From assembly GCA_018335585.1 (NCBI GenBank), contig JAGXRZ010000040.1, positions 23,906 through 87,905 on the forward strand: 64,000 bases of DNA. Reading direction: 5' to 3'. Positions 28,400 to 59,472 of the stretch are shown here, one piece after another (the stretch's first letter is position 1; each line of letters begins with the position of its first letter). The translations under genes and the position numbers were made by a program. This DNA comes from Selenomonadales bacterium (lineage in GTDB: Bacteria > Bacillota > UBA994). The notes under the pieces were generated by a model. That model did no database searches and was not told the DNA's origin. It saw nothing but the letters and a program-made list of their open reading frames with translations.

Positions 28400-28423
28400 A
28401 CCTACGTTGAGGAGGTGTGGGTC

Positions 28424-31148: not shown

Positions 31149-31943
31149 ATGGAAGCTAAGTGGAAGCGCGACGCCATCATACGCTACAGTGCGGTCGTAT
31201 GTATTGCGGCTCTAGTCATGTCTAATGTCTGGTTGATGATTAAGGTAAACGATCTTATACGTGCGATTGGTTCTTTGCCGAGGCATATTCCGAGTCCTAC
31301 CACCTACGTCAACCTCAGCCCCTTGTATACAGGGGTTGTTGACGAGCGTGTTCTGATGGTCTCGGAAACGATGGGCGAAAAACTAATAGTTAGATACAAC
31401 TTCACCCTCACGGAACGAATTCCCGGTTACGTCTTAGTTGTCCGCTTTAGAGCAAGTCAGACAGCCGCTTGGGAACAAGTTCGCCCCGCGCCTCTCTACG
31501 GGCTGGAATACGAAGCCTTCCTTCACGTGAATCCGGCTCTCAGCTATGAGTACCAAGTTGTTCAAATGCTTGGAGACCAAGTCATGAGGGCCACCACCCC
31601 AGGCTTCATCAAAGTTGGTGAATGGGTGGGGACCTCCACCTTAAACATCGTGCGGTCCGGTTATCCCAACGAACGTAAGGTGCGAGTCGCTGTGTACCAG
31701 CCGCAATTTTCGGCGCTTAGAGCTTGGCAGGTAGATAAGGTCACTATCAAGCTCGACAATGCGCCTGAGGCAGTCGTTCTCGAAATGTTTCGCGGCGATC
31801 TAACCGGTTACAAGTTCGATGAAACAGTCTACCAGGCAGCTAGAGCGGTGACAGTCACCGCCTACTACGGGGATGGCGAGACCCGTAGTGTGACATTCGA
31901 CCCGCACAACCATTTCGAGCAACCGATAATAAGACGCGATTAG
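31149..31943 (+). CDS. Hypothetical membrane-anchored exported protein
   Basis: N-terminal hydrophobic anchor (YSAVVCIAALVMSNVWLMI) then ~230-aa domain with no recognisable motif; AGGGAG RBS; AT-richer than core genome. Confidence 0.55.
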   Translation: MEAKWKRDAIIRYSAVVCIAALVMSNVWLMIKVNDLIRAIGSLPRHIPSPTTYVNLSPLYTGVVDERVLMVSETMGEKLIVRYNFTLTERIPGYVLVVRFRASQTAAWEQVRPAPLYGLEYEAFLHVNPALSYEYQVVQMLGDQVMRATTPGFIKVGEWVGTSTLNIVRSGYPNERKVRVAVYQPQFSALRAWQVDKVTIKLDNAPEAVVLEMFRGDLTGYKFDETVYQAARAVTVTAYYGDGETRSVTFDPHNHFEQPIIRRD

Positions 31944-31959
31944 GAATAGGCGGTGGGAC

Positions 31960-31985
31960 GGCCTGACCGGCGTCGCCGACAGCGT
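31960..31985. repeat. Direct repeat copy 2 (ggcctgaccggcgtcgccgacagcgt)
   Basis: Matches 30840-30865; together they bracket the rlmH 3' end plus the hypothetical gene 31149-31943. Confidence 0.8.
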
Positions 31986-32041
31986 TTTGCGATCATGTCC
32001 CCGCTCAATACGGGGTGTGTTCCGGAAGGAGTCTTGGATTA

Positions 32042-32773
32042 ATGAAGAACAGCGACATTCTTGAGGATGTTTCTTGTCTGACTGCGAAGGCTGTTGCTCA
32101 CTATTGGGGAACGCGAACAACGCAGAGACAGAAACAAGAACATAGCGGTAAGATCGACCAGGGCCTACGCAGCGCAGTAACCGGAGGAGCCCAGATGGAC
32201 GGTTTCATTGATCTGGTTGTTGAACTAGTAGTGCGAGCCGGAATCCCTGAACGATGCATATTTAGAAAGAAGTCTGTTGAGCTCCCCGGCTACTTTAGGC
32301 CAACCAAAGAGTGGGATCTACTTGTTGTTAAAGAACAGACTTTGGTTGCTGCAGTTGAAGCTAAGTCACAGGTGGGCCCTTCATTCGGTAACAACTTTAA
32401 CAATCGAACTGAGGAAGCGCTAGGTAGCGCGGTTGATCTCTGGACTGCCTATCGAGAGAATCTTTATCTATCAAGTCCTCAACCGTTCTTAGGTTTCCTC
32501 TTCATGCTGGAAGACTGCAAGGCCTCGAACAGACCTGTCATGGTTCAGGAACCGCATTTCGAGGTTGCCAAGGAGTTTATCGGGGCGTCCTATAAGCGCA
32601 GATACGAGTTGCTTTGCCGAAAACTAGTCCTTGAAAGGCACTACACAGCCTCCGCATTTCTCGTATCGTCAACTGACAGAGGTAGTGCAGGAACCTTTAC
32701 CGTACCGGCGGAGGATCTATCTGTTGAGCGTTTCGCTAGAGTGTTAGTCAGCCATCTCGGAGCATTTGTATGA
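32042..32773 (+). CDS. Type II restriction endonuclease-like protein (PD-(D/E)xK fold, BamHI/BglII-like)
   Basis: WDLLVV...VEAKSQ acidic/EAK block and SFGNNFNNRTEEALG resembling the BamHI catalytic region; directly coupled (ATGA overlap) to a DNA methyltransferase; GGAAGGAG RBS before ATG 32042. Confidence 0.5.
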   Translation: MKNSDILEDVSCLTAKAVAHYWGTRTTQRQKQEHSGKIDQGLRSAVTGGAQMDGFIDLVVELVVRAGIPERCIFRKKSVELPGYFRPTKEWDLLVVKEQTLVAAVEAKSQVGPSFGNNFNNRTEEALGSAVDLWTAYRENLYLSSPQPFLGFLFMLEDCKASNRPVMVQEPHFEVAKEFIGASYKRRYELLCRKLVLERHYTASAFLVSSTDRGSAGTFTVPAEDLSVERFARVLVSHLGAFV

Positions 32774-33687
32774 AGCCAGTACAGACGACGCACAGGCTTG
32801 TCAATGGCGACGCACGAGATCTCTCATTCCTCAGTGATGCGTCTGTCCATCTGGTGGTAACTTCGCCCCCCTACTGGAATCTCAAGCGGTATAACGAGAG
32901 CCCCGGTCAGATGGGCCACATACAAGATTATGAGACGTTTCTCCTAGAGCTTGAGAAAGTGTGGAAGCAGGTGTACCGTGTCCTAGTTCCGGGCGGTCGC
33001 CTGGTGTGCGTTGTTGGCGACGTCTGTGTTTCTAGGCGCGAGTTCGGACGCCACTTAGTTTTCCCGCTCCATGCGGACATTGCAGTTATCTGCCGCCGTA
33101 TGGGGTTTGACAACCTTAACCCGATAATTTGGCATAAGATTACCAACGCTTCTTATGAAGTTGCCAATGGCTCGAAATTCCTCGGCAAGCCGTATGAGCC
33201 GAATGCGATTATCAAGAATGACATTGAGTTCATCTTGATGCAACGCAAACCTGGAGGTTATAGGAAGCCAAGCGAGTCGCAACGAGAGGCAAGCAAGATC
33301 AGCAAAGAAGACTTTGACCGCTGGTTTCAACAAATGTGGCACATTCCCGGCGCGTCAACAAAGCACCATCCAGCACCGTATCCATTAGAGCTCGCAGCGC
33401 GTCTGGTGCAAATGTTCTCATTTACCGAAGACACAGTGCTCGACCCCTTTTGTGGCTCCGGCACCACTATGGTCGCCGCACTAAGGGCCGGACGTAACAG
33501 CATTGGGATTGAGATTGACCCCCTCTATTGCCGCATGGCGGCGCAGTATCTAAAGGCTGAGAGCAACAACCTGTTCTCTGCTAACAGCACACTGCTCTTT
33601 GAGAGGTCTTCCGTTGAAGCTACCGGAGCCCTAAGAGAGGACGATGCCCTTTATGAAGTACGCGCTGCCAAGAAGAGACTCGAATAG
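32770..33687 (+). CDS. DNA methyltransferase, beta-class (motif IV SPPY before motif I DPFCGSGTT), probably N4-cytosine
   Basis: TSPPYWN (motif IV) near N-terminus and VLDPFCGSGTT (motif I) near C-terminus; this order defines beta-group amino-MTases, and SPPY is usual for N4C enzymes. Confidence 0.8.
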   Translation: MKPVQTTHRLVNGDARDLSFLSDASVHLVVTSPPYWNLKRYNESPGQMGHIQDYETFLLELEKVWKQVYRVLVPGGRLVCVVGDVCVSRREFGRHLVFPLHADIAVICRRMGFDNLNPIIWHKITNASYEVANGSKFLGKPYEPNAIIKNDIEFILMQRKPGGYRKPSESQREASKISKEDFDRWFQQMWHIPGASTKHHPAPYPLELAARLVQMFSFTEDTVLDPFCGSGTTMVAALRAGRNSIGIEIDPLYCRMAAQYLKAESNNLFSANSTLLFERSSVEATGALREDDALYEVRAAKKRLE

Positions 33688-38187: not shown

Positions 38188-42562
<4,375 letters not shown>

Positions 42563-42607: not shown

Positions 42608-42656
42608 AAGGGACGATTCCACAGAGAACCGTCCCTTTTGTTTTTCTTTTGTTTTT
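42608..42656 (+). terminator. Rho-independent terminator after ligA
   Basis: aagggacg...cgtccctt stem followed by TTTGTTTTTCTTTTGTTTTT; the T-run abuts the convergent oppF stop. Confidence 0.75.
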
Positions 42657-43647
42657 ACTTTGCTAGGTGGCAGGCCACGAAGTGGTCGGGGCGAATTTCG
42701 CGCCATACGGGGTCGTCGACTTTGCACTGGTCTACCGCAATCGGACAGCGCGTGTGGAAGCGGCAGCCGGAAGGCGGGTTAACCGGGCTTGGCACGTCCC
42801 CTTTGAGCCTTTGCCTGTCCATGCTCATATCCGGGTCGGCATGGGGAATGGCCGAAAGCAGCGCCTGCGTATACGGGTGAGTCGGCTGCGCGTAGAGGTT
42901 TCTTGACGTAGTAAGCTCCACGAGTTTGCCGAGGTACATAACCCCTACCCGGTCACTAATGTGCTTGACGACACTTAAGTTATGGGCAATAAAGAGGTAC
43001 GTGAGGTCATGCTTCTGCTGTAGCTCTTTTAAGAGATTTAGAATTTGTGACTGGATAGAAACGTCAAGGGCCGATACCGGCTCGTCACAGACAATGAGCT
43101 TCGGGTTATAGATGACAGAGCGGGCAATACCGATACGCTGGCGCTGTCCACCGCTAAACTCGTGCGGGAAGCGGCGGTAGTGGTATGGCGCTAGGCCAAC
43201 TTCCTCAAGCATAGCGTGCACGCGTTCCGTGCGCTCCCGAACATTCGTCATTCCCTGCACCAAGAGCGGCTCCCCGATAATATCGCCTACCATCATGCGG
43301 GGGTTAAGCGAGGAGTATGGGTCTTGGAAGATGATGCCGAGGTCCTTGCGCTTCTTGCGCAGTTCTTCGGTGCGCAGCCTGCGCAGGTCAGTGCCTTCAA
43401 AGAGAATCTGACCGGCGGTCGGCTCGTGTAAGCGCAGGATAGTGCGCCCCGTCGTTGTTTTGCCGCAGCCGCTCTCGCCGACGAGCCCTAGTGTTTCTCC
43501 CTTGCGAATAAAGAAGCTTACGCCGTCGACAGCGCGGACGTAGTTCTTGGGCTTGCCAAACCAGCCGCCCTTAATGGGGAAGTGCTTTACAAGATTGTTA
43601 ACTTCTAAGAGATTAGGTGAATCGGTCTCTAGTCTCATTGCCATCAC
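42655..43647 (-). CDS. oppF: Oligopeptide/dipeptide ABC transporter ATP-binding protein (OppF/DppF type)
   Basis: Walker [13 protein letters not shown] signature LSGGQRQR, Walker B LIVCDEP, C-terminal oligopeptide-transporter extension with Cys. Confidence 0.9.
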
Positions 43648-43650
43648 GCT

Positions 43651-44634
43651 CTACCCCCTTGCCTCCCTGATAGGATACCAACAGCTAACTTTGTGCCCGG
43701 GCGCAGCCTCCACCAGTGTCGGCTGCTCGGCGCGGCACTTGTCTTGTACATAGGGGCAGCGCGGCCCAAAGCGGCATCCTTCCGGCAGGTACAAGAGGTT
43801 TGGCACCGTGCCGGAGATAACGTGCAGCTTCTCGACCTCGCGCGCGAGGTGCGGGATAGAATCAAGTAGACCGTGCGTATAAGGGTGCATCGGTTTCTTG
43901 AAGGTGTCGCGCACTGTAGCTTCTTCCACAACCTTACCTGCGTACATAACGACCACGCGGTCAGCCATGCTCGCGACTACGCCGAGGTCATGCGTAATGA
44001 GCATGATGCTCATGCCGAGCGTCTTGCGCAGGCCCCGCATCAGGTCGAGAATTTGCGCTTGAATAGTCACGTCTAGCGCTGTTGTCGGCTCATCCGCGAT
44101 TAAAAGCTTAGGGTTACAGGAGAGCGCCATGGCAATCATCACTCTTTGCCGCATGCCTCCCGAAAGCTGATGCGGGAACTCGTCAAAGCGGCGCTCGGCA
44201 AGTGGTATTTCAACTTTGCGCAGCATTTCAACCGTGCGCGCACGCGCCTCGCTCTTAGATACCTTTTGGTGCAGGATTATCGCCTCGGCAATTTGGTCGC
44301 CCACCGTATAGACAGGGTTAAGGCTGGTCATCGGCTCTTGGAAAATCATGCCGATGTCGTTGCCGCGGATTTCGCGCATTTCTTTTATGCTTAGCTTAAG
44401 CAGGTCTTTGCCGTCGAAGATAATCTCGCCGCGCTCAATCTTACCGGGCGGGCTCTTAATTAGGCGCATAATTGACAGCGCCGTTACGCTCTTGCCGCAA
44501 CCGCTCTCGCCCACTACGGCTAACGTTTCATCCTTGTCAATGTGCAGGGATACGCCGTCAACTGCGGGGACGATTCCTTCGCGAATGTGGAACGCGGTAC
44601 GGATATCTTTAACTTCAAGCATGGGACTAGACAT
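43651..44634 (-). CDS. oppD: Oligopeptide/dipeptide ABC transporter ATP-binding protein (OppD/DppD type)
   Basis: Walker [18 protein letters not shown] signature, Walker [13 protein letters not shown]; 4-bp gap to oppF. Confidence 0.9.
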
Positions 44635-44857
44635 TACGGGCCTCCTCTCGCTGCGCTACCCATTTGCGATAACGCGCATCTACTACTGCTAGAACAAACA
44701 ACACGACTACCACTATAATATACCAAGGGCGGAAGTTAATGGCGAGGCCCTGGTGTTGCACCGAAAAGAAGACCATTAAAAAGCCAACTAACATGGGTAG
44801 AGTGAGGACAATCAACCATGCGACCATGCGCACGCACTTCGTCAGTTGCTCTACCAT
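44627..44857 (-). CDS. Small hypothetical membrane protein (76 aa, two TM helices)
   Basis: Overlaps the oppD start by 8 bp and the upstream 558-aa gene stop by 7 bp, a translational-coupling arrangement. Confidence 0.5.
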
Positions 44858-46527
44858 CGCCCCACCCCCGCCATAAACAAACTAGTAAAGGAATCACCTA
44901 TCACAAACAGCAAGCCGGCAAACGAGAGGGTAAGGAAATCGTCTGCGGGCATATCTGCCAAGTGAATTACGGCCACGGTAAGTGAGGCTGCCGCAAGCCA
45001 CGACACCACCGCCGTCCAACCCGGCAACATTACCGCGCCAAAGTACAGCAGGCTTCCCGGTTCTTTCAGCGCAACGATAATCGCAAACTGCAGGGCAAGA
45101 CGCAAGTAGCTGCCAAGTCTGCTGGATGAAAACAGGCCAAAGTGGCTCATCAACCAAATTGCGACCAAGCTAATTGCCATAGCGCCGGTTGCGCCAAAGG
45201 CGACAAACACTGCGCCGGTGAGCAGGCTCATGTACTTATACAGAGCGTCAGCCCATGGGGAATGCGGATTCAGGCCAACGCGAAAAGCTAGCGTGCGCTG
45301 TGCGGGCGTAGCGGTCTGGACGACATACAACTGGGAACGTCCGGCATTGTCGTGGCTGAAGAAGGATATGACGCCGACATTACCCACTAACAGCGGTCGC
45401 GCACCTAAGGCATGGCCACGCGTTATCGTGGCATATCCGGCTCGCACTGTATTGCCTGCACCGTCCCTAAGAATGCTCTTCACCTGCCAAGCGCGACCCA
45501 CCTCGACCATGGCGGCCACTAGGGTGCGCCCATCGTCGCTACGGGCTCCGCGTGCAGATAGAATTCGACCACGTAAATGTATGAGGCTGCTAAGTGGCTC
45601 TACCCATTCACCGTTAAGCAATCGTCCCTGTACCGGTTCCATGGGGATGACGCGTGCTGGGGTAACATGCATACGTTGCCAGATCACTGAAACTGATCCG
45701 TCAGGGTTGGCGAGGAGCGTAGGTGCGTGCTCATAGTCTTGGGGTATCGCTCCAAGCTCGGTTGTGGCTAAACGTGTGAGCATGGGCAGTTCATAGAGGT
45801 GATAGCGCGCCCAAGAGAGATGCTGTCGATGCCTGTGAAACACCAAATGCAGTCTATCGCCGGCAAGGGCGATGGTAGGTACGGTAGCCAGCTCATCCGG
45901 CGTGGTGAGGCGTGTCACCAGAGGTGTTTCGCTGCCGGACGTGAAACTCAGCAGATGAATCGCGTGGTGACCGTCAATCGCGGCACTCAGTGCGATGTAA
46001 AATGTGTCGTCATCGGCGGCGGCTACGGCAGGGGAGTCGGCAAGTGCCGGGGTACGCCAGAGGATGTCCTGCCGCAAAAGCTGTCCATTTGTGTCCAACT
46101 TTGCCCTGTGTAGAGTGCTCTCGATGCCTTCTTGCCGCTCTATCCAAAACACAGATAGTCCGGCATCAGATTCTAGCAAGGTGAACCCGCGCAATAGGTG
46201 TGTTACGGGGAGCGTGATATTGGTCACGGCCGCATTTCTCTCTAGGCTGAAGAGTGTAACTTGAAGTACGGTTGCAGGCCCCTGATAACCCACCGAAGCT
46301 AACCACAGGCTGTCGAACCCAGCCGGAGCGCTGAGGTGCCCGTAGTGCGGCCTTGCTTCAATGACACTTTGTTCGCGTGACCAGCCATCCGGCCAAGCTG
46401 ACGGAGCTGCCGCATGGGCAGTTGTACTAAGCATGGCGACTGACAGCAGTACGAGTACAACCAGCGCTAGAGCGGCTTGGCGACTATTTAAGTTTCGGGT
46501 CGAGCGCATCGCGTAAACCATCACCAA
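44851..46527 (-). CDS. Hypothetical exported beta-rich protein with C-terminal polytopic membrane domain (558 aa)
   Basis: N-terminal signal/anchor (AALALVVLVLLSVAMLSTTAHAAAP), ~400-aa region of recurring hydrophobic/His-containing strands (LHLVFHRH, VSVIWQR, LSVFWIERQ, HAIHLLSF), then four to five C-terminal TM helices. No recognisable catalytic motif. Overlaps the oppC 3' end by ~44 bp; true start may be a downstream ATG/GTG. Confidence 0.55.
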   Translation of the reverse strand: MVMVYAMRSTRNLNSRQAALALVVLVLLSVAMLSTTAHAAAPSAWPDGWSREQSVIEARPHYGHLSAPAGFDSLWLASVGYQGPATVLQVTLFSLERNAAVTNITLPVTHLLRGFTLLESDAGLSVFWIERQEGIESTLHRAKLDTNGQLLRQDILWRTPALADSPAVAAADDDTFYIALSAAIDGHHAIHLLSFTSGSETPLVTRLTTPDELATVPTIALAGDRLHLVFHRHRQHLSWARYHLYELPMLTRLATTELGAIPQDYEHAPTLLANPDGSVSVIWQRMHVTPARVIPMEPVQGRLLNGEWVEPLSSLIHLRGRILSARGARSDDGRTLVAAMVEVGRAWQVKSILRDGAGNTVRAGYATITRGHALGARPLLVGNVGVISFFSHDNAGRSQLYVVQTATPAQRTLAFRVGLNPHSPWADALYKYMSLLTGAVFVAFGATGAMAISLVAIWLMSHFGLFSSSRLGSYLRLALQFAIIVALKEPGSLLYFGAVMLPGWTAVVSWLAAASLTVAVIHLADMPADDFLTLSFAGLLFVIGDSFTSLFMAGVGRW

Positions 46528-47374
46528 TATAGTTGTACGCCAAGACGGTAAGGAAGATTAGCAGGCCGGGGATATACGTCATATGCGGGGCAAAGCGTAG
46601 CGTATGGCGCCCGGCTTCCATTAAGGAGCCCCAGCTTGGAGGGTCTGTTACGCCGAGGCCAATAAAGGCCAACCCGGCTTCGGTCAACATAGCGCCGCCG
46701 ACGCGAAGCGTGGTCGATACAATGATGGGGGCCATGCAGTTTGGAAGAATGTGCTGCATGACGATGCGCGAGTTGCGTGCCCCTACCGAGCGTGCCGCTT
46801 CAACGTAGTCCATCTCGCGTAAGGATAGGAACTGTCCGCGCACCAGACGCGCCGCAGAAGGCCACGTCGTAAACCCGATAACCAACATAATATTGAGCAA
46901 GCTGCGCTCAAACACAGCTACTACGGTAAGTAGCAAGAAGAAGGTGGGAATAGCCATCATAACTTCGCAGATGCGCATAATCACATCGTCGATTACGCCG
47001 CCAAAGTAGCCAGCCACTGCGCCTGCTAAAGTCCCAAGCGACATGGCAATGCCGGCCGCTACAAAGCCTACCATTAGACTAATGCGAGCGCCATGCAAGG
47101 TGCGGCTGTAGAGGTCGCGACCCAAACGGTCAGTTCCGAAAGGGAATTCGCGGCTCATCGGCTCAAAGCGGCCGCCGACGTGGATGGCCATGGGGTCGTG
47201 CGGTGCGATATAGGGGGCGATGATGGCGATAAAGTACAGCAACACTAAGACGCCGGTGAAGAACATAGCCAACTTATGTCGACGGAAGCGGTACCAGGTA
47301 AGTGACCAGAAGGTTTCTTCTTTCGCGCTCATCCCGGTAAAAGGTTTTGTCACCTGTGGGTTTGCCGTAGCCAT
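46484..47374 (-). CDS. oppC: Oligopeptide ABC transporter permease (OppC/DppC type)
   Basis: 296 aa, six TM helices, BPD-transporter EAA-like loop (SVGARNSRIVMQHILPN). Confidence 0.9.
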   Translation of the reverse strand: MATANPQVTKPFTGMSAKEETFWSLTWYRFRRHKLAMFFTGVLVLLYFIAIIAPYIAPHDPMAIHVGGRFEPMSREFPFGTDRLGRDLYSRTLHGARISLMVGFVAAGIAMSLGTLAGAVAGYFGGVIDDVIMRICEVMMAIPTFFLLLTVVAVFERSLLNIMLVIGFTTWPSAARLVRGQFLSLREMDYVEAARSVGARNSRIVMQHILPNCMAPIIVSTTLRVGGAMLTEAGLAFIGLGVTDPPSWGSLMEAGRHTLRFAPHMTYIPGLLIFLTVLAYNYIGDGLRDALDPKLK

Positions 47375-47386
47375 TATGTCACCTAC

Positions 47387-48364
47387 CTAATACTTAATGC
47401 GTGGATCAACCACAACGTAGAGAATATCCGCAATGAGCATGCCAAGCACTAGCATGGTCGCCCCCATGAGGTTAAAGGCCATAATAACCTGGTAGTCTCG
47501 CGTGAATATCGCACTTAACGCTAACAGACCGACGCCAGGCCAAGCAAATATACTCTCGATTACAATCTGCCCACCCAACATGCCGCTAAATGTAAAGCCA
47601 AGAGTAGTTACAATAGGCAGCAAGCTGTTACGGAGAGCATGCTTAAAGATTACGACGCGCTCAGACAAACCCTTGGCCCGCGCTGTGCGCACATAGTCTT
47701 GGTTAACTTCGTCGAGCATGCTAGCGCGCATAAAGCGGACAAGCCCTGCCAAACCTCCAAATACGCCGACAGTCAGAGGCAGGATCAAATAGCGCAGTCG
47801 GTCGCTAAACCACTCCATAAAGGGTACTTGGCCCCACTCTACGCCAAACGTAGCCAAACCAGAAATAGGAATGAACTCAACATTCATCGCGACATAATAG
47901 ATAAGCATCATCGCAAAAAAGAATCCGGGCATAGCGCTCCCAATAAAAGCCATGAAGGTCATGATATGGTCAAACCATGAATACTGCTTCACAGCGGAGA
48001 TGATGCCTATTGGCAGAGCAATTAGGTACACAAAGAACACAATCAAGAGATTCAGAACAATGGTCGCTGGCATGCGCTCCATAATCATATCAAAGACTGG
48101 TCGCGCCGTGATTAAGGAGTGGCCGAAATTGCCGCTCACAACATTCCGCAACCAACGGAAATATTGGATGTGAACGGGTTGGTCTAAACCCCACAAGGCT
48201 ATCAGGCGTGCATTGTCTTCAGCTGTAGCGTCAATAGACTCACCAACCATATCGGCAAAGCTACCTGGGGCCAATTGGATAATGGTGAAGGTCAAGATAG
48301 ATACGCCGATAAGGAGAAAGATTGACTGGAGGAGTCTCCCCGCAATATAGCGTCCCAAGCTCAA
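47387..48364 (-). CDS. oppB: Oligopeptide ABC transporter permease (OppB/DppB type)
   Basis: 325 aa permease with EAA motif region (TARAKGLSERVVIFKHALRN); TTG start with AGGAAGGAG RBS. Confidence 0.9.
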   Translation of the reverse strand: MSLGRYIAGRLLQSIFLLIGVSILTFTIIQLAPGSFADMVGESIDATAEDNARLIALWGLDQPVHIQYFRWLRNVVSGNFGHSLITARPVFDMIMERMPATIVLNLLIVFFVYLIALPIGIISAVKQYSWFDHIMTFMAFIGSAMPGFFFAMMLIYYVAMNVEFIPISGLATFGVEWGQVPFMEWFSDRLRYLILPLTVGVFGGLAGLVRFMRASMLDEVNQDYVRTARAKGLSERVVIFKHALRNSLLPIVTTLGFTFSGMLGGQIVIESIFAWPGVGLLALSAIFTRDYQVIMAFNLMGATMLVLGMLIADILYVVVDPRIKY

Positions 48365-48396
48365 AGCTCCTTCCTAGGTATAGATTTGCACAAAGG

Positions 48397-48420
48397 AGGG
48401 GCAGAGCGTAGCTCTGCCCC
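48397..48420 (-). promoter_or_regulatory. Intercistronic stem-loop between oppA and oppB
   Basis: Perfect 10-bp stem ggggcagagc/gctctgcccc with 4-nt loop, 14 nt after the oppA stop and before the oppB RBS; no U-tract. The classical arrangement for differential SBP/permease expression in opp operons. Confidence 0.6.
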
Positions 48421-48433
48421 TTCGCAGAAGTGG

Positions 48434-50410
48434 CTACCTTCTAATAAAACGGGCCTCTGCAATGATCGTGCCAATGGGCGACTCTATGATGCCGTCGACC
48501 CGCTTTGCGACACCACGAACCAGTGTCCGCTGCCACAGCCAGATGTAGGGCAGTTCACGGTTAAGGATTTGGTCAACCTGCTGGTACATGGCGCGGCGCT
48601 CGGCCACGTCGACTGTAAGACGACCAGCCTCAAGCAACCTGTCTACTTCTGCGTTGACGAATGGCTGGCGGTTGAACCCGCGGATATGACCGTCAGCACC
48701 ACGTACAGCCTGAGAGGAATGGAAGAAGGGGAACGGATCGGGATCAAGGCCAAGCGCCCAACCAATGATGACGACCTCAAAGCGGCTGAGAGTGAGGTCA
48801 TCAAGCATAACCGACCACTCAGTCGGACGGTCGGCCGCGTCTACACCAATCTCTCTCCACTGCCTTACAGCCATGGCGGCGGTGTCCTGGCGAATGGCGT
48901 TGCCGGTGTTCCATTGCACGCCGAGGCGCATAGGATCGCCGGTGGGGGAACCGTCGCGGCGGCGCATTGTTTGCCCGGCGGGTATACGCCAGCCGGCTTC
49001 ATCAAGCAACTGACGGGCGCGTGTCTGGTTAAAGGCATAGGTGTTGAGGTTTGCCGCGCCGCTGGCCCAAGTAGTTGGAATCTGGTGGGAGTTAACTACG
49101 GTGCCGAGACCATTAAGAATGCTCCTAACCATAGCGGGCCTGTCGAGAGCAAGCTTCAGCGCCTCACGTACACGGCGGTCACGCAGAATTGGGTTCTCAA
49201 GGTTGAGCGACATATAGTCGTAGCCGTGGTTGGGGATATCGCGGAAGTTAGCGCGGGTTGCCATCTCCCGTCGTACGCGGTCAACTGCATCGGGGGTGAT
49301 AGTCATCCAGTCGATATCGCCTGCTTCAAACGCTGCCTGCATAACGTTAATGTCGGCGTAGCGCCTAAAGACGATCTGGTCGATGTAAGGACGAGGAGCC
49401 ATCCAGAAATGTGGATTACGCCGCAATGCGGCGAATTGCCCGGGGATAATACGGTCGAGTAAGTATGGACCTGCGCCAATCGGTTGGCGGCTAAAGGAGT
49501 GTGCGCGATGTTCACGCACAGGTACGTTGCCGAGGATGTGGTGGGGGATAATCCCAAGGCCAATGTTAAGGAGGAAGGGCGCGTCTACTTGGCGCATTCT
49601 AAAGCGCACGATGTGGTCGCCTGAGGTAGTAATTTCGGCAACATGCTGCACGTTAGTGCGACGCACGCCGTCATAGTCAGGGTGCAGGATAGTGTCATAC
49701 GTGAACTTAACGTCGCGCGCGGTAAGCGGACGACCGTCGCTCCACCGGACATCCGGCCGCAGCCAGAAGGTCCAAGTGAGGCTAGCCTGATCCCACGACC
49801 AACGATCAGCAATAGAATTGCGCACCGTCAAGTCCACTGCTGTGCGGACAAGGCCATAGCTAATCCAACCATGGATGTCTGATGAAGCGGTGTCTGTGCT
49901 CAGAATCGGGTTTAGAATAACAGGCTCGGATATAGCACCAAAAGTAATAGTGCCGCCGATTGGCTTTGCTGTGTAGGGGGTATGTTGTACGGTTACGGTG
50001 CGAGTAGCGTCAACCCAAGCGACCTCTGCACCTAGGGCTTCAGCTACAAAGCGGAGCGGCACCATCGTGCGGCCGCCGACGGCTACCGGGGCTACGTCGA
50101 GTTGGCGGGAGGGGCCGTTCACCCAAGCCGTGCGGTTACCAAGCTGCAGGACAATGGCGTCCTCGCGGCGGTAGGCGCGGATGGTGCTAGTGGCGTCATC
50201 CCAGTGTACTTGAGCGCCAAGCGCTTCGAAGATTGCGCGCATCGGCACGAGAGTACGGCCGTTTTGAATGGTGGGAGCTACGTCCATCGTCAGGGGAGCG
50301 CCGTTAATCGTTACGCGAATGGGGGTGTTAGCTTGGGCTAGGGGTAGCCCTAAGAACATCGTCGCCACCATTGCCAACACGGCAAAACCAACCAGAGATT
50401 TTCTTAGCAA
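48434..50410 (-). CDS. oppA: Oligopeptide-binding protein OppA (SBP family 5) with two N-terminal copper-amine-oxidase-N-like stalk domains
   Basis: Signal peptide, then two ~45-aa repeats (TLVPMRAIFEALGAQVHWDDATSTI / TMVPLRFVAEALGAEVAWVDATRTV), then a ~500-aa family-5 SBP domain. Confidence 0.85.
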   Translation of the reverse strand: MLRKSLVGFAVLAMVATMFLGLPLAQANTPIRVTINGAPLTMDVAPTIQNGRTLVPMRAIFEALGAQVHWDDATSTIRAYRREDAIVLQLGNRTAWVNGPSRQLDVAPVAVGGRTMVPLRFVAEALGAEVAWVDATRTVTVQHTPYTAKPIGGTITFGAISEPVILNPILSTDTASSDIHGWISYGLVRTAVDLTVRNSIADRWSWDQASLTWTFWLRPDVRWSDGRPLTARDVKFTYDTILHPDYDGVRRTNVQHVAEITTSGDHIVRFRMRQVDAPFLLNIGLGIIPHHILGNVPVREHRAHSFSRQPIGAGPYLLDRIIPGQFAALRRNPHFWMAPRPYIDQIVFRRYADINVMQAAFEAGDIDWMTITPDAVDRVRREMATRANFRDIPNHGYDYMSLNLENPILRDRRVREALKLALDRPAMVRSILNGLGTVVNSHQIPTTWASGAANLNTYAFNQTRARQLLDEAGWRIPAGQTMRRRDGSPTGDPMRLGVQWNTGNAIRQDTAAMAVRQWREIGVDAADRPTEWSVMLDDLTLSRFEVVIIGWALGLDPDPFPFFHSSQAVRGADGHIRGFNRQPFVNAEVDRLLEAGRLTVDVAERRAMYQQVDQILNRELPYIWLWQRTLVRGVAKRVDGIIESPIGTIIAEARFIRR

Positions 50411-50608
50411 CTTTCTTCACTCCTTTTTCTTTTGTTGGGCATCTAGGAAAAAGCCTATGTAGTGGCCGAAACCACCTCCTAAAGATGATAAGAATAAGAC
50501 TGCTCTCGCTTTATTCTACATGCTAATTTGGAATCCTGCTATAATTCTCGCACTTCTAATCCGTGAATTTTTTGTTACTTTTAACGCGGGCCAAATATGA
50601 AGTTTCCG

Positions 50609-50899
50609 TCATAAAAAGGCTTGCCTGACTGCGGTGATAGCATAGTATGAAACAAAGTAGAAGAAGAGCGCAAAGTAGGCGAGGAGCACCAAGCGCGCTA
50701 ACCGTGCCTTAGCGCCTCGCGGGTACCGAAAGACGAACTCGTCACACAGAAGCTTAGATATAGCTATAGACAGCAGCCCAACCAACATATTTACCCAATA
50801 GGCGGCAACAAAGTCAATCACCAAAAACGGCATCGCCAGCCCTCCTTTGACAGTCCATTGCTGTGGTATTCTTTCATTGATATGCTTACAGTGAACCAA
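50609..50899 (-). CDS. Hypothetical small membrane protein (96 aa)
   Basis: Three predicted TM segments; AT-rich promoter region; divergent from plsY, upstream of oppA. Confidence 0.35.
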   Translation of the reverse strand: MVHCKHINERIPQQWTVKGGLAMPFLVIDFVAAYWVNMLVGLLSIAISKLLCDEFVFRYPRGAKARLARLVLLAYFALFFYFVSYYAITAVRQAFL

Positions 50900-50925
50900 T
50901 TAGGAATTTGAGGAGGAAGGAATAG

Positions 50926-51561
50926 ATGGTTGATGCACTTGTCGCGGTGTTAGCGGCCTATCTTTGTGGCTCCTTGTTGTTTGGCGTGATTTTAAGCAAG
51001 TGGCTTAAAGGCGTTGACATCCGCGGCTTAGATAATCCCGGCGGCACAGGCTCCATTCGCAAGTTTGGTTGGCGCTTTGGGCTTATGGTAGGCGTCCTTG
51101 ATGCGCTAAAGGGGGTAGCGGCAACTTATCTCGCTCACACGCTTACAGGCGACCCAATTGTCGTGATGCTTAGTGCAATGGCGGTAGTGGCAGGGCACAA
51201 CTGGCCAATCTATTTTTCCTTTCGCGGCGGCGGCGGGTTGGCACCGGCATTTGGCGTGATTATCTACCACTACCCGTTGGAGTTTGCGCTGGGGCTGATT
51301 CCGGCGCTACTTATGCTCGCGCTCTATAAGCGCACGCCTATACGCCGCTGGTTGCCGTTCATCGGACCGGTCCCGATTATAAGCGTAGTGGGCTTACTTA
51401 CTACCTTGGCCTTCGTCTGGCAACGGTACGGTTTTTTCCCCGGCAGCGCAACAATAATAGCTATGGGCATTCCCATAGCTATCGGTGGGTACGTTATGCT
51501 GTTGCGGGATAGAGAGAGGCGGAGGAGTGGAGTTGAGGGACGGAGGAGTGCGACATCCTAG
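50926..51561 (+). CDS. plsY: Glycerol-3-phosphate acyltransferase PlsY
   Basis: ~200 aa, five TM helices, conserved DxxxxNPGGTGSxR and GHNWP motifs; RBS GAGGAGGAAGG. Confidence 0.8.
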   Translation: MVDALVAVLAAYLCGSLLFGVILSKWLKGVDIRGLDNPGGTGSIRKFGWRFGLMVGVLDALKGVAATYLAHTLTGDPIVVMLSAMAVVAGHNWPIYFSFRGGGGLAPAFGVIIYHYPLEFALGLIPALLMLALYKRTPIRRWLPFIGPVPIISVVGLLTTLAFVWQRYGFFPGSATIIAMGIPIAIGGYVMLLRDRERRRSGVEGRRSATS

Positions 51562-51565
51562 GGGA

Positions 51566-52168
51566 CTACGCAGCTGGCTGCACAGCCGCGCGGATACTTG
51601 CGCTACACACGTAATATGCGGCAGCAGTGCCTGCGGCTAGGGCAAAGCGCAGGTCGGCCTGCGGGGACATGGGGGTAGCTAGGTAGCGGCGATGTAGCCG
51701 CTCGAGGTGACTTTCTAGGTCACCGACTGTCGCCAGGGTACCATGCTTTAGCTCGGTTAGCGATTCTTGCGCTAGGGTGTCTAAAGGCATAGTGCGGCTT
51801 ACGAGGTGTAGGTTGGCCTCATAGGCAAAGTGTAGCGGCAGGGAGTCGTCCTGCCGCTGGTTGTGCACGGCGCAGAAGAAGTCCGTCAAAAAGTGTATGA
51901 CCACGCCGAGGCGCGTAGCGAAGGTTTCACGCGCGGTGTTGTCGATGGGAAGCACGTTGTTGGCTAGCTCGGCAATTGCGCGCAGCACAAAGGCGAAGGA
52001 TTTCTCCTTTATATGCGGAGTATAGAAGACACCAAGCGAAAAGTCCGGTTGGATACAGCCAAACAGGAAGTCATCCACCGATATTTTGCAGACCTCCGAC
52101 CGCGATTGCAGGGCGCTAAGTATGGCGAGACCGACGCGCTGGTGCGTTCCCGAAAGCAATGTACTCAC
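51566..52168 (-). CDS. Hypothetical protein, possibly zinc-dependent phospholipase C-like hydrolase
   Basis: GTHQRV near N-terminus and HFLTDFFCAVHNQ resembling the H-x-x-x-D...H metal site of the PLC/P1-nuclease fold; weak assignment. Confidence 0.35.
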   Translation of the reverse strand: MSTLLSGTHQRVGLAILSALQSRSEVCKISVDDFLFGCIQPDFSLGVFYTPHIKEKSFAFVLRAIAELANNVLPIDNTARETFATRLGVVIHFLTDFFCAVHNQRQDDSLPLHFAYEANLHLVSRTMPLDTLAQESLTELKHGTLATVGDLESHLERLHRRYLATPMSPQADLRFALAAGTAAAYYVCSASIRAAVQPAA

Positions 52169-52250
52169 TCCTGTTTCTTTGCTTAAGCAAATGCTAACGC
52201 AGAAAGATTAAGCCGGCATCAAACAGAAGTTAACCTTAGGTAAACATTAA

Positions 52251-52286
52251 CACATAAAAAGTCCCCGCCGTGGTACGCGGCGGGGC
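52251..52286 (-). terminator. Rho-independent terminator after maoC (end of bcd-etfBA-maoC operon)
   Basis: ccccgccg/cggcgggg stem with 6-nt loop; minus-strand transcript continues into TTTTTATGTG. Confidence 0.7.
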
Positions 52287-52319
52287 AAATGAGTGTAGAT
52301 GAGGGGAAAGAGAAAAATA

Positions 52320-52736
52320 CTACTTCTTCATGACGGTTGCTTTGCCGTCAATAACTAACGTGCCGTCTTGCGTGGTCGCGGTGGTCCTAAGGACAATGCG
52401 GTTCTTTCCCTCGATTTTCTCTAGGACTTCCACTGTGGCGGTGACAGTGTCGCCAATCCTTACCGGGGCCTTAAACGAGAGCTCTTGCGCGAGGTAAATG
52501 GTGTTTACGCCGGGGAGTGAAGTGCCGAGGACGGCAGAAATCATCCCGACCGAGAGCATGCCGTGCGCTATGCGACCTTTGAACATAGTGTCCTTCGCGA
52601 ACTCGGCGTTAACATGGACGGGGTTAAAATCTCCCGTCAGGCCGGCGAAAGCGTAGACGTCGTACTCGCTGATGGTCTTAGACATAGAGGCCGTGTCGCC
52701 TACCTTGATGTCGGCAAACTTTACATCTCGAATCAT
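52320..52736 (-). CDS. MaoC-like (R)-specific enoyl-CoA hydratase, hot-dog fold
   Basis: 138 aa with FAGLTGDFNPVHVNAEFA hydratase motif and catalytic His. Confidence 0.8.
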   Translation of the reverse strand: MIRDVKFADIKVGDTASMSKTISEYDVYAFAGLTGDFNPVHVNAEFAKDTMFKGRIAHGMLSVGMISAVLGTSLPGVNTIYLAQELSFKAPVRIGDTVTATVEVLEKIEGKNRIVLRTTATTQDGTLVIDGKATVMKK

Positions 52737-52773
52737 TAACTTATTACCTCCTCGTTATTCTTGTCCTCCAAAG

Positions 52774-53970
52774 TCACGCCGAGCGCAGCTTGCGTAGCTC
52801 CTCGATTAGGACGGGCAGAACATCTAGCACGTCGCCGACGATGCCGTAATCGGCAGCCTTAAAGATGGGCGCGTCCGCATCTTTGTTTATGGCGATAACG
52901 ATGTCCGAGGAGGACATCCCCGCAAGGTGCTGAATCGCGCCGGAGATGCCGCAGGCAATGTAGATTTTGGGGCCGACGGTCTTACCGGTCTGACCAACTT
53001 GGTGTAGCGCGTGTTTCCAGCCAGCATCTACAGCCGCGCGGGAAGCGCCGACTGCGCCGCCTAGCACTTCTGCCAGCTCTTCAATCAAGGCAAAGTTTTC
53101 TGGCCTGCCCATGCCGCGCCCGCCGGAAACGATGACCTCTGCTTCCTCGAGGTTGACACTCGCCGTGGTCACCTGAATTACGTCCACCAGTTTCGTGCGA
53201 ATGTCACTCCACTTTACTTTGCTTGTGACGCGCACAAGTTCCCCGGTACGATTGTAGTTCTCTGCCGGGCGCTTAAACACCTTTGGCCTGACCGAGCCCA
53301 TTTGCGGGCGGTGGTCGGGGCAGAGGATGGTTGCCATAATGTTGCCGCCAAACGCGGGTCGCGTCCATTCAACGAGCCCGGTCTCGGCTTGGATGCTAAG
53401 CCCGGTGCAGTCGGCGGTAAGCCCGGTGCCTAAGCGTCCGGCTACCCGCGGTGCAAGGTCCCGCCCGTCGGTCGTCGCGCCAAGCAGCACCACCGAGGGC
53501 TTATAGGTGTTAATCAAGTCGACGCAGGCGATGGTGTAGGCATCGGTGCTATAATGCTTGTATTCAGGACCTTCTACTAGATAGACTTTGTCAGCGCCGC
53601 TGGCGATAGCTTCGCGTGCGAGCGTGTCTAAGTTTTCACCTAGCAGCACAGCCGCAAGCTCCTGCCCTAACGTGTCAGCCAACAGCCTGCCCTGACCGAG
53701 CAGCTCGTGCCCGACGCTGCGCGTCTTGTCGCCGACGCGCTCCATGTATACCCACACGCCGCTGTAAGCGCTCTTGTCAACTAGAACCTCGCGCGCTTCG
53801 TCCTCACGCACAATCGCGGTCACCGGGCAGAGAGGCACGCAAGCGCCGCAAAGCGTACACCTTTCGTCGATGTAAGCTTTGTCGTCTCGCCACACAATCG
53901 CCCCAAACGGACAGGCTGGGAGGCAAATGCCGCAACTAATACATTCGTCGCTAATTACTCTAATCGTCAT
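52774..53970 (-). CDS. etfA: Electron transfer flavoprotein alpha subunit with N-terminal 2x[4Fe-4S] ferredoxin domain (FixB-like)
   Basis: [12 protein letters not shown] and [12 protein letters not shown] clusters in the first 60 aa, then EtfA FAD-binding domain. Confidence 0.85.
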
Positions 53971-53984
53971 GTCGCTCTCCTCCC

Positions 53985-54770
53985 TTAAACTAGCTTGGCT
54001 TCGGCTAGTTTGCCAAGCAGCTCAAGCACTGCCGCCCGCGCCGTGTCTTTGTAAATTATTTCGCCTTGCGTGCGCTGCTTTGGGGTAAAGATGCGGACAA
54101 CTTGGGTGGGCGAGCCTTTAAGTCCCAACCGCTTGTGTTCCACATCGAGGTCGTTAACTGTCCAGACAGGAATTACTTTGCGCGCTGCCTTCATCGTGCC
54201 TTTTACAGTCGGCAGACGCGGCTCGTTAATAGACTTAACCACGCTGATAAGCAGGGGCAGTGAGGTCTCAATGACCTCAATCCCTTCCTCATGCTCGCGC
54301 TCAAGGCGCGCGGTTTTGCCGCCAATATCAATGCGGGAGACGTAAGTGGCTTGCGGAATGTCCAGACACTCGGCTATTTCCGGCCCGACTTGCGCCGTAT
54401 CGCCGTCTATAGCTTGCTTGCCGCAGATAATTAGGTCAAACCGGCCCATTTTCCTGATGGCGGCGGCTAATGTATAGCTTGTGGCTAGAGTGTCGGCCCC
54501 GGCAAAGGCGCGGTCGCTAACTAGAATGGCTTCATCCGCACCCATGGCGATACACTCGCGTAACGCCTCCTCGGCCTGCGGTGGCCCCATGGAGAGTGCG
54601 GTCACCTTGCCCCCGTGCTGCTCGCGCAGGCGAAGCGCCGCCTCAACGGCATTTTTGTCGAAGGGGTTAACGATGCTCGGCACGCCTTGGCGAATCAGCG
54701 TATTTGTCTCCGGGTCTATTTTAACCTCCGTGGTATTGGGCACTTGTTTAATGCAGACGACGATTTCCAT
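53985..54770 (-). CDS. etfB: Electron transfer flavoprotein beta subunit
   Basis: 261 aa EtfB fold (MEIVVCIKQVPNT...). Confidence 0.85.
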   Translation of the reverse strand: MEIVVCIKQVPNTTEVKIDPETNTLIRQGVPSIVNPFDKNAVEAALRLREQHGGKVTALSMGPPQAEEALRECIAMGADEAILVSDRAFAGADTLATSYTLAAAIRKMGRFDLIICGKQAIDGDTAQVGPEIAECLDIPQATYVSRIDIGGKTARLEREHEEGIEVIETSLPLLISVVKSINEPRLPTVKGTMKAARKVIPVWTVNDLDVEHKRLGLKGSPTQVVRIFTPKQRTQGEIIYKDTARAAVLELLGKLAEAKLV

Positions 54771-57855: not shown

Positions 57856-59472
57856 ATGTCAAGGTTAGTCAAGAGCTATCTTGCCTTCTACTTAGTCATG
57901 CTGGCGGTCGTGCTCATTTGGGGCGCACCCATTTTGTTTCCTACCCTTGCTTACACATTTACCGAAGAAGAAGTGCGCTATCTTGCGGCACTAGGTGAAC
58001 TGCGTGTCCTGGCTGACCGCGACTTTCCTCCCTTTACCTATGTGCGCGAGGGCAAAGCCGTAGGCTACGAACTTGACTTGATGCGCGAACTAGAGCGTGT
58101 ACTGCTCATCCCGGTAAAAGTGGAGCAAGACATGTGGTTAAATGTGCGCGAACGCCTGATGCTTGGGGAAGCTCACCTTGTCTCCGGTATGCGCATTACG
58201 CCAGAGCGGCGCAGGCTCTATCAGTTTACAGATCCTTATCTCTACACCCTGCATGCGGTTATTACTAGGCGCGAGGCACGAGCCGACGACTTAGAGGCGC
58301 TGCGCGGGCTTCCCGTGGCGGCGCAGGCAGGCTCGGCGACGGCCGAACGCTTAGTCGGTGAAGGCCACACAATTATACCTAAGGCCACCCCGGCCGAAGC
58401 TTTTGCTGCTTTGGCGCGGGGCGAGGTCGCGGGGTGGGTGGAGCAGCTCTGGGTAGCTAGGTACATAATAGGTGCCAAAGATTTGCCGTTTTACACCCTA
58501 ACGCCGCTGCCGGACACACAGGGCGAGTACGCCATGGCGCTGTGGGGGCAAGCCGACCCGCGGTTACGCCGCATACTTAACAAAGCGCTGTATCGTTTGC
58601 ATCGGCACGGTGTGATGGCGGAGATTAACGCGCGTTGGTTTGGCCCTGCCGTTACGCGCGTGGCGCATGACGAGGACAGGCTGCGCCAAGCCTTGTTTCT
58701 TTTTCTGGGTGTAGGCACGCTAGGCGTAGGGTTAGTCTTTAGTAACGCTTACCTGCAGCGCCGTGTGGAAACGCAAACGCGGGCCTTGCGCCTTTCCAAC
58801 GCGGCGTTAGCGCGGCAACATGAGCGCGTGCAAGACATGCTTATCAACACGGCACGTGCCTTTGGGGTGGCTATCGAAGTAAAGGACATTTACACGGGCG
58901 GACACAGCCACCGTGTGGCGGGCGTGGCTTACTTTATTGCCAAGCAACTTGGGCTGACGGAGAGGCAGATGTTTGAGCTGTGCCTCGGTTCCTTGATGCA
59001 TGATATCGGCAAAGTAGGGGTGCCTGAGGCTATCCTTACCAAGAACGGAAACCTCACTCCTGCCGAATACGAGTATGTCAAACAGCACCCGCGCATTGGG
59101 CACGAGATTTTGCGCGCTGTAGACGGGTATGAGGCCGTGCGGGACATTGTTCTCTACCACCATGAACGGTGGGACGGACAAACCACAGGGCAATATCCGG
59201 GCTATCCCGGGCTGCGCAGGGGCACAGCTATCCCATTGGGGGCGCGCATTGTGGCCGTTGCCGACGCTTTTGACGCCATGACGTCCGAACGCCCCTACCG
59301 CACGGCCCGTTCCGTCAGCGAAGCGGTGGCAGTAATCCAAAGAGAAGCTGGCGGGCAGTTTGACCCAGACATTGCGGTTACCCTAATCGGTGCGGAGGCA
59401 GAGTTAGCGGCGACAGAGCCGCACAGCTTGCCTATGATACTTAAGGAGTTAGCCATGCGGTTGCGCGTATAA
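57856..59472 (+). CDS. HD-GYP phosphodiesterase with periplasmic solute-binding (SBP_bac_3-like) sensor domain
   Basis: TM1, ~230-aa periplasmic domain, TM2, then HD-GYP domain with HSHRVAG, HDIGK, HHERWDG and GYPG motifs. Confidence 0.8.
   Translation: MSRLVKSYLAFYLVMLAVVLIWGAPILFPTLAYTFTEEEVRYLAALGELRVLADRDFPPFTYVREGKAVGYELDLMRELERVLLIPVKVEQDMWLNVRERLMLGEAHLVSGMRITPERRRLYQFTDPYLYTLHAVITRREARADDLEALRGLPVAAQAGSATAERLVGEGHTIIPKATPAEAFAALARGEVAGWVEQLWVARYIIGAKDLPFYTLTPLPDTQGEYAMALWGQADPRLRRILNKALYRLHRHGVMAEINARWFGPAVTRVAHDEDRLRQALFLFLGVGTLGVGLVFSNAYLQRRVETQTRALRLSNAALARQHERVQDMLINTARAFGVAIEVKDIYTGGHSHRVAGVAYFIAKQLGLTERQMFELCLGSLMHDIGKVGVPEAILTKNGNLTPAEYEYVKQHPRIGHEILRAVDGYEAVRDIVLYHHERWDGQTTGQYPGYPGLRRGTAIPLGARIVAVADAFDAMTSERPYRTARSVSEAVAVIQREAGGQFDPDIAVTLIGAEAELAATEPHSLPMILKELAMRLRV

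Follow-up and report, generated by a model that had tools for sequence, protein, structure and literature searches.

Few bacterial transporters have been studied as thoroughly as the Opp/Dpp importers, which are regarded as having exactly five components. The locus described here, part of a 64,000-nucleotide stretch of DNA (the window) from an uncultivated Bacillota genome, raises the question of what two additional membrane-protein genes are doing between oppC and oppD of such an operon. We denote the two genes and their products X and Y.

Operon composition and gene junctions

The open reading frames confirmed the gene order given in the initial annotation, oppA-oppB-oppC-X-Y-oppD-oppF, on the minus strand:

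48434..50410, minus strand: oppA, secreted substrate-binding protein (SBP); Pfam SBP_bac_5 (9e-77) and, N-terminal, Cu_amine_oxidN1 (3e-38)
47387..48364, minus strand: oppB permease; Pfam BPD_transp_1_N and BPD_transp_1
46484..47374, minus strand: oppC permease; Pfam OppC_N and BPD_transp_1; 3' end overlaps the start of X
44851..46509, minus strand: X, propeller and membrane-anchor protein of 552 amino acids; open reading frame
44627..44857, minus strand: Y, two-TM hairpin of 76 amino acids; hydropathy and orthologues
43651..44634, minus strand: oppD ATPase; Pfam ABC_tran and oligo_HPY
42655..43647, minus strand: oppF ATPase; Pfam ABC_tran and oligo_HPY

The five canonical parts carry the domains expected of an Opp/Dpp-type (PepT) importer such as OppABCDF or B. 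subtilis AppABCDF, namely a family-5 SBP, two BPD_transp_1 permeases (one with OppC_N) and two oligo_HPY ATPases. The closest solved relative of OppA is B. subtilis AppA (1xoc, E 5e-73), and OppA is much closer to peptide binders than to sugar binders. Because OppA is AppA-like, the substrates of the importer are probably peptides. The system differs from OppABCDF in that its composition is not restricted to five components: two extra membrane-protein genes stand between the permease and ATPase genes, giving seven coupled genes here and in relatives. A further difference lies in the SBP, which has the Cu_amine_oxidN1 domain and no lipid anchor; its N-terminus shows an SPase-I signal without a lipobox, and the SBP is non-lipidated in the close clade.

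Gene overlaps at every stop/start junction tie X and Y into the operon. The previously reported overlaps of 44, 7 and 8 nt can all be read from the sequence, the first of them depending on the start codon of X. The longest reading frame opens at TTG 46527 (558 amino acids); the NCBI start is ATG 46509 (552 amino acids), which is preceded by GGTGATGG and is common to the N-termini of most homologues. With the oppC stop at 46484, the overlap amounts to 44 nt from the TTG and 26 nt from the ATG. X and Y share 7 nt (ATGGTAG), and Y and oppD share 8 nt (ATGTCTAG), with GAGAGGAGG standing before the junction. A scan of the operon for internal promoters and terminators yielded no signal above chance, and an Rfam search of the whole window yielded no RNA element.

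Architecture of X and Y

X matches the NCBI entry 'hypothetical protein KGZ66_06845' (552 amino acids) at 100%. Its parts are as follows:

46411..46509, minus strand: predicted signal peptide of X, residues 1-33; basic n-region, hydrophobic core with a hydropathy peak at residues 16-27, AHA/A
45310..46389, minus strand: extracytoplasmic seven-bladed beta-propeller of X, residues ~41-400; structure model
44854..45300, minus strand: juxtamembrane motif (LAFRVGLNPHSPWAD) and four-helix bundle of X, residues 404-552; most conserved part of the family

Cleavage of the signal peptide is predicted at AHA/A by the -3/-1 rule. The model of the extracytoplasmic region (pLDDT ~90) contains 28 beta-strands arranged in seven four-stranded sheets, or blades, and gives strong structural matches to solved propellers. 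Hydropathy and structure models agree on four C-terminal TM helices. The N-terminal signal, the possible beta-propeller and the C-terminal membrane domain of four to five helices that had been proposed for this protein are thus all borne out. By comparison with solved membrane-domain folds, residues 404-552 gave no meaningful structural match.

Within the X family, the juxtamembrane and TM part holds most of the conserved positions, among them D421, P418, Y489, K482, PG496-497 and D539; the two most conserved motifs are LAFRxGLDPxxPxxD and LKxxGxxLYYGAxxxPG. The propeller is the fastest-diverging part, and what it retains across the family is almost entirely Gly, Trp and Pro. The family sequence alignment reveals neither an acid/base set nor a His/Tyr/Arg set common to the propellers. 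That the conserved residues are mainly structural Gly and Trp argues against a catalytic site. The His-containing segments noted in the initial annotation are a property of the close clade, in which GHHAIHL and LHLVFHRHRQH are invariant, but not of the wider family. Since the histidines are replaced in distant members, we rejected metal binding by a His-rich propeller as a function of the whole family; in the close clade, these residues may have a role in metal binding or pH response.

Y has two TM helices by hydropathy, as previously suggested. Its Pfam search returned sub-threshold noise only (for example DUF7942 and holin-like models), and neither X nor Y contains a cytoplasmic signalling domain according to Pfam and the structure models.

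Distribution, gene context and divergence

X has no match in Pfam or NCBIfam, and PDB sequence searches with the X profile and the TM-domain profile were equally negative. Database names of X and Y relatives read only 'hypothetical protein', and the description of both proteins as uncharacterised stands, as homology searches (Pfam, NCBIfam, PDB) place neither in a known family. Searching with an X-family profile yielded 161 matches at E<=1e-3, and the neighbourhoods of 17 independent loci were read. All X relatives, down to 18-25% identity, come from uncultivated Bacillota. A metagenome scan with a narrower X alignment gave 6 loci; a word-indexed profile search with a diverse X alignment returned the close clade only. 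In the open-access literature we found no paper describing such an opp insert or an Opp system with such components, and papers on NPL-UPA2 and serpentinites contain no discussion of an opp insert.

In all 17 independent loci, X is located inside or next to an Opp-type operon, in most of them directly after oppC, and a Y-like hairpin then follows in most. The synteny check proposed in the initial annotation turned up, among the loci read, no relative with X away from an Opp-type operon, those at 18-37% identity included. The order oppA-B-C-X-Y-D-F of the close clade is kept in the P0017 group (37% identity) and in P0034 and P0028 (~24% identity), whose Y-like reading frames encode 71 and 62 amino acids. 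The P0026 locus reads oppC-X-Y, and the P0036, P0023 and P0037 loci read oppA-B-C-X; at P0020, the order is oppD-oppF-X-Y, with X-Y placed after oppF instead of oppC. Directly after X, the close clade and L014, L015, L019, L021, L024 and L026 have Y orthologues or Y-like hairpins of 62-76 amino acids, and Y was not found in three lineages. In the majority of loci, the X reading frame begins within the end of oppC, and the W-stop/ATG-GTA junction between X and Y is seen again even in distant members. At L017, a PepX/S15 peptidase gene adjoins the operon. Two distant lineages (L017/L018 and L025) have X although their SBP is a lipoprotein without Cu_amine_oxidN1.

Conservation in orthologous loci with dN/dS values of 0.09-0.14 for X and 0.17-0.25 for Y identifies both as real genes rather than chance reading frames; both are under purifying selection. 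Identities of X and Y track those of OppB, OppC and OppD (Spearman 0.63-0.85), indicating co-divergence, and X and Y evolve ~5x faster than OppC and OppD (dN ~0.25 vs ~0.05). Between two genomes that are otherwise 99-100% identical, no gene of the locus diverges more than X (67% amino-acid identity), and the valley of divergence takes in the whole opp cassette, not X alone. This strong allelic divergence of the cassette suggests an ecologically important role of the locus at the cell surface.

Candidate roles of X and Y

The reading that we favour, and to which we would give an even chance, assigns X and Y to a distinct seven-gene subclass of Opp/App-type peptide importers in uncultivated Bacillota, as membrane components with a dedicated accessory function, the propeller being a non-catalytic platform. 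What points to a physical association of X and Y with OppBCDF is gene order, translational coupling and co-divergence. X would be translated in step with OppC, and its four-helix bundle, aided by the Y hairpin, would pack on the OppB/OppC transmembrane dimer and so keep the propeller at the external membrane face, next to the OppA docking site. The motifs LAFRxGLDPxxPxxD and LKxxGxxLYYGAxxxPG, predicted to lie at the outer membrane surface, are candidates for the contact with OppBC. As a capture or docking platform beside OppBC, the propeller might retain and position OppA, which is secreted and non-lipidated, or more than one OppA paralogue; alternatively, it might pre-capture ligand from the wall zone. 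Either arrangement would increase delivery to the translocator. A strict tether role, in which X would hold non-lipidated Cu_amine_oxidN1 SBPs, is weakened by the pairing of X with lipoprotein SBPs in two distant lineages. Three observations count against the favoured reading more broadly: X-Y stands after oppF in one lineage, Y is missing from three, and the propeller folds closest to that of X belong to glycan-acting enzymes and lectins.

In the maltose importer MalFGK2, the membrane subunit MalF uses its extracytoplasmic P2 loop to grip the binding protein. The loop offers a possible functional analogy to the proposed mechanism, that of a domain at the translocator helping the SBP to dock. 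The MalF domain is, however, an insertion in the permease and no propeller, whereas X is encoded separately, has a four-helix anchor of its own and is accompanied by a mini-protein. NikK and NikL, lineage-specific extra components of the NikMNQO uptake system, show that transporter operons of restricted lineages can encode additional membrane proteins of small or bitopic type; NikMNQO is of the ECF type and is presumably unrelated to X and Y in sequence and fold.

Because the structural matches closest to the X propeller are glycan lyases and hydrolases (the sialidase-like seven-bladed GH145, PL42 and PL24/PL25), the main rival to the accessory-component reading is a substrate-processing role. 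X would then be an extracytoplasmic membrane-tethered enzyme or lectin that processes or binds a wall or environmental polymer, for instance a glycopeptide, a muropeptide or a uronate-containing glycan; Opp would import the product, and Y would only stabilise the anchor. Enzymes encoded within dpp/opp operons have a precedent in B. subtilis dppA, a D-aminopeptidase encoded inside the dpp operon, and the peptidase gene beside the operon at L017 fits this picture. The X profile also matches blades of long secreted proteins with BNR_4 and SBBP repeats, but X matches neither Pfam BNR_4 nor another catalytic family at E<=1, its distant relatives gave no Pfam BNR_4 match, and no PDB sequence match was obtained. 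The GH145, PL42 and PL24/PL25 enzymes, which are soluble or secreted, lack the four-helix membrane anchor of X. The rapid divergence of the propeller relative to the membrane part, its conservation of little but Gly, Trp and Pro with no visible catalytic-type residue set, and the far greater closeness of OppA to peptide than to sugar binders likewise weigh against an enzyme or lectin, which we regard as unlikely. A peptidase-like role, one of the options in the initial annotation, finds no support because X has no catalytic domain and the family alignment shows no conserved catalytic-type residues. The propeller resembles that of prolyl-oligopeptidase S9 no more closely than it does generic WD40 propellers, and Pfam and the model show no alpha/beta-hydrolase domain with a Ser-Asp-His triad in X; Pfam WD40 and PD40 (TolB-like) repeats gave no match either.

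It is equally improbable, in our estimate, that X-Y is an independent envelope module merely co-transcribed with opp, such as a sensor or regulator of the transporter, a cell-wall or S-layer anchor, or a variable surface protein under phage pressure. The fast evolution of X and Y and the 67% identity of X between near-identical genomes form a pattern typical of surface-exposed proteins under external pressure, but the divergence valley spans the whole cassette. The signal/anchor, large ectodomain and C-terminal multi-helix anchor of X recall YhgE/Pip-type phage receptors in topology only, with no YhgE/Pip match in Pfam. Although Y is missing in some lineages, X accompanies Opp permease genes in every locus examined across very deep divergence, the overlapping-codon coupling is conserved, and neither X nor Y has a cytoplasmic signalling domain. 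Finally, a fortuitous insertion or non-functional remnants in the operon of one lineage, for which only the absence of annotation speaks, can be dismissed as refuted by the family search, the dN/dS values and the locus comparison, given purifying selection on both genes, confident predicted folds, and sequence, topology and operon position kept in 17 or more loci that span several deep lineages.

More tentatively, and with clearly less confidence than in the accessory-component reading, the locus may represent a type I ABC importer of a class not recognised before: OppBC would have two extra integral-membrane subunits, one of which presents a large surface propeller and is required for, or gates, the delivery of substrate or SBP, and the whole would be encoded by a rapidly diversifying surface cassette of subsurface- and serpentinite-associated Bacillota. 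Of the four related genomes that the genome scan gave, three bear the isolate codes or lineage names HKB, GPS and NPL-UPA2, which suggest hyperalkaline serpentinising springs, the sites being deduced from the names. In such springs, scavenging of organic nitrogen and carbon, both in short supply, is considered critical. If the proposed role is true, the conserved pair of extra membrane subunits would extend the architecture of type I ABC importers by a new principle, that of a separately encoded accessory platform outside the cytoplasm, with X as a surface propeller on a membrane fold that has no solved counterpart; it would also provide names and a testable role for two protein families that have neither.

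Two genes embedded in a complete Opp operon

Reading of the ORFs revealed seven consecutive genes on the minus strand at window positions 42655-50410. By Pfam, five of them constitute a complete Opp/Dpp-type ABC importer. The other two, denoted X and Y, lie between oppC and oppD, which confirms the observation made in the initial annotation.

Genes of the opp-X-Y unit (window positions, strand, product)
48434-50410, minus: oppA, Cu_amine_oxidN1 domain followed by SBP_bac_5 (Pfam)
47387-48364, minus: oppB (Pfam)
46484-47374, minus: oppC, OppC_N and BPD_transp_1 (Pfam)
44851-46527 (longest ORF), minus: X, between oppC and oppD
44627-44857, minus: Y, between oppC and oppD
43651-44634, minus: oppD, ABC_tran and oligo_HPY (Pfam)
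42655-43647, minus: oppF, ABC_tran and oligo_HPY (Pfam)

The junction sequences agree with the overlapping stops and starts described initially. The X stop and the Y start overlap by 7 nt (ATGGTAG), and the Y stop and the oppD start by 8 nt (ATGTCTAG, with GAGAGGAGG immediately upstream). The final codons of oppC contain the start of the X ORF; the most likely X start is the ATG at 46509, giving 552 residues and a 26-nt overlap with oppC. NCBI calls this start for the identical protein P0001, and the resulting N-terminus is common to most homologues. Within the opp-X-Y unit, no Rfam elements were found, nor any promoter- or terminator-like sites above chance.

The first 33 residues of X form a typical Sec signal that ends AHA|A. 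The following ~360 residues were modelled by AlphaFold2 as 28 strands arranged in seven four-stranded blades (pLDDT ~90), and four long helices lie C-terminal to this propeller. The top Foldseek matches were the PL42 rhamnose-glucuronate lyase, GH145, PL24/25 ulvan lyases and bacterial pseud-/neuraminidases (E 5e-9 to 1e-6, TM 0.4-0.6); the predicted fold is that of a generic seven-bladed propeller. Profile tests did not place X in the BNR_4, WD40/PD40, S9 or YhgE/Pip families. Y consists of a hairpin of two helices, and its C-terminus is basic. Neither protein matched Pfam, NCBIfam or PDB sequences, and no known relatives of the X membrane domain or of Y were found.

OppA is AppA-like and hence probably peptide-binding. 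In this clade it is secreted without a lipid anchor; its signal is of the SPase-I type, with no lipobox, and the Cu_amine_oxidN1 domain is N-terminal. Related loci vary around this gene: L002 (1-6065) contains three tandem Cu_amine_oxidN1 SBP genes upstream of oppB, and L012 (5392-8422) a second oppA-oppB pair after oppF. OppD and OppF each have four Cys residues in the oligo_HPY tail (...SC in OppD and ...AC in OppF), a pattern that appears similar to the motif by which some Opp ATPases are reported to bind Fe-S clusters. Directly upstream of oppA is a 74-residue two-helix membrane ORF (MPFLVIDFVAAYW...; 50609-50833, minus), preceded by AAAGGAGGG and without a Pfam hit. Its DNA and protein, plus ~150 nt of flanking non-coding sequence, are 100% identical in the related contigs L006 and L007; L001 and L002 have small opposite-strand ORFs at this position instead. 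The ORF could encode either an eighth small component or a protein that regulates the operon.

Conservation of X and Y across related loci

A word-indexed search for X yielded only 14 proteins, all unnamed, at identities of at least 52%. When 1.84 billion representatives were searched exhaustively with a profile, 161 hits were obtained at E ≤ 1e-3, ~20 of which are full-length relatives of the same architecture (E 1e-157 to 1e-17); the others match by the C-terminal domain alone or are long multi-repeat secreted proteins with BNR_4/SBBP blades. The named sources of X relatives are exclusively Bacillota MAGs, among them isolates HKB212 and GPS119 ('candidate division NPL-UPA2'), UBA994 and a Peptococcaceae MAG. 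From the isolate names and the study that produced such MAGs, we infer that the serpentinising springs Hakuba Happo and The Cedars are the source of several of them.

Gene neighbourhoods, read at 17 independent X loci and summarized with tblastn, showed X within an Opp-type operon or next to one in every case (17/17). The order oppA-B-C-X-Y-D-F is seen in the close clade of nearest relatives, in the group of the X homologue P0017 (37% identity) and for P0034 and P0028 (~24% identity; Y-like ORFs of 71 and 62 residues). The arrangement is oppC-X-Y for P0026, oppA-B-C-X for P0036, P0023 and P0037, and oppD-oppF-X-Y for P0020; tblastn located the ATPase genes of the P0023 lineage in convergent orientation 1.5-2.4 kb downstream. 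Among distant members, too, one finds X starts that overlap the oppC end and X/Y junctions of the form 'W-stop / ATG-GTA'. The Y-like proteins keep size, position and two-helix topology, and little sequence. At locus L017 of the P0023 lineage, a PepX/Peptidase_S15 gene (2514-4151, minus) and a TrmB-family regulator (1624-2505, minus) divergently adjoin oppA-B-C-X.

In pairwise comparisons, X and Y identities follow those of OppB, OppC and OppD (Spearman 0.63-0.85), yet they are far lower: at 92% OppC identity, X retains 66-67% and Y 72-75%, and at 55-60% OppC identity X retains ~24%. The dN/dS ratios were 0.09-0.14 for X, 0.17-0.25 for Y and 0.02-0.045 for OppC/D, with dS saturated in several pairs. 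Collectively, these data demonstrate that X and Y are functional genes that are inherited together with the transporter and evolve ~5 times faster.

Family-wide conservation of X is concentrated at four places. One is the N-terminal motif WPxGWSxP, and another comprises a small number of Gly and Trp residues of the blades. The third pairs the juxtamembrane motif LAFRxGLDPxxPxxDAxFK, whose D421 is invariant, with the TM2-TM3 loop LKxxGxxLYYGAxxxPG, both at the outer membrane surface by topology; the fourth is an Asp of the final helix. The His residues highlighted initially are invariant in the close clade but not conserved in the wider family.

Divergence of the cassette in a near-clonal background

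We compared window positions 42655-50600 with positions 3900-11900 of L006, a near-identical genome fragment, using window positions 50600-54485 and 40511-42562 as flanks. The left flank, from etfA to plsY and including the 74-residue membrane ORF, matches L006 at 99-100% DNA identity. Over the opp cassette, identity collapses; it is lowest in the X propeller (63-66% nt in 300-nt sliding windows) and recovers only partially through oppD/F and ligA.

Identity of window genes to L006 (nucleotide; amino acid)
oppA: 78.5%; 84.9%
oppB: 76.0%; 85.1%
oppC: 80.9%; 91.9%
X, whole gene: 69.8%; 67.2%
Y: 75% (nucleotide)
oppD: 88.5%; 96.3%
oppF: 89.5%; 95.4%
ligA: 92.0%; 93.6%

Accordingly, the cassette behaves as one exchanged or divergent-allele unit, which suggests allelic replacement of the whole cassette or long-maintained divergent alleles in an otherwise near-clonal backbone. 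Its most variable portions are surface-exposed. The pattern fits a surface-located X whose function is linked to that of the transporter; external pressure on the locus, for example by phage, may also be at work.

The longest LigA ORF (40388-42562, plus) has a 64-residue N-terminal extension from GTG 40388 that looks non-native; matching to the 660-668-residue homologues in related loci places the native start probably at a Met at ~40580. Elsewhere in the window, a Fic/SoFic-like protein (28415-29494, plus) lies between purK and dapF, and an N6_N4 DNA methylase (32770-33687, plus; region 31146-33687) follows two ORFs (31146-31943 and 32015-32773) without Pfam hits; this arrangement could reflect a small insert, either mobile or of restriction-modification type, among housekeeping genes. 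Positions 57856-59472 (plus) encode a 538-residue fusion of a family-3 solute-binding domain and an HD_5/HD domain, an extracytoplasmic-sensor-type phosphohydrolase.

Proposed role of X and Y

The association of X and Y with Opp permease genes is deeply conserved and translationally coupled, X being a propeller that is exported and has a novel anchor of four helices, and Y a companion hairpin. From these features and the AppA-like SBP, we infer an accessory role for both proteins as membrane subunits of the Opp transporter, in support of the interpretation offered initially. X and Y would form an assembly with OppBC, and the propeller would be held as a non-catalytic platform next to the site at which the SBP docks, where it would retain or position OppA, or pre-capture ligand. 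The strict version, a tether for a non-lipidated SBP, is weakened by two distant lineages in which X occurs together with ordinary lipoprotein SBPs. A rival to the accessory-subunit reading is that X-Y is an independent surface module merely co-transcribed with opp. Another would make X a tethered glycan- or glycopeptide-processing enzyme or a lectin; the fold neighbours of the propeller are the one point in its favour, and neither the X sequence nor its conserved residues support it. Since no polar residues of the propeller are conserved family-wide and conservation is concentrated at the outer membrane surface, a scaffold is favoured over an enzyme.

All five canonical parts identify the operon as one of the Opp/Dpp class, but it departs from the description of that class as having five components only; a search of the open-access literature found no paper on an Opp operon with such inserts. 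We therefore regard the operon as an Opp system of seven genes, two of which represent unnamed, putatively accessory families.
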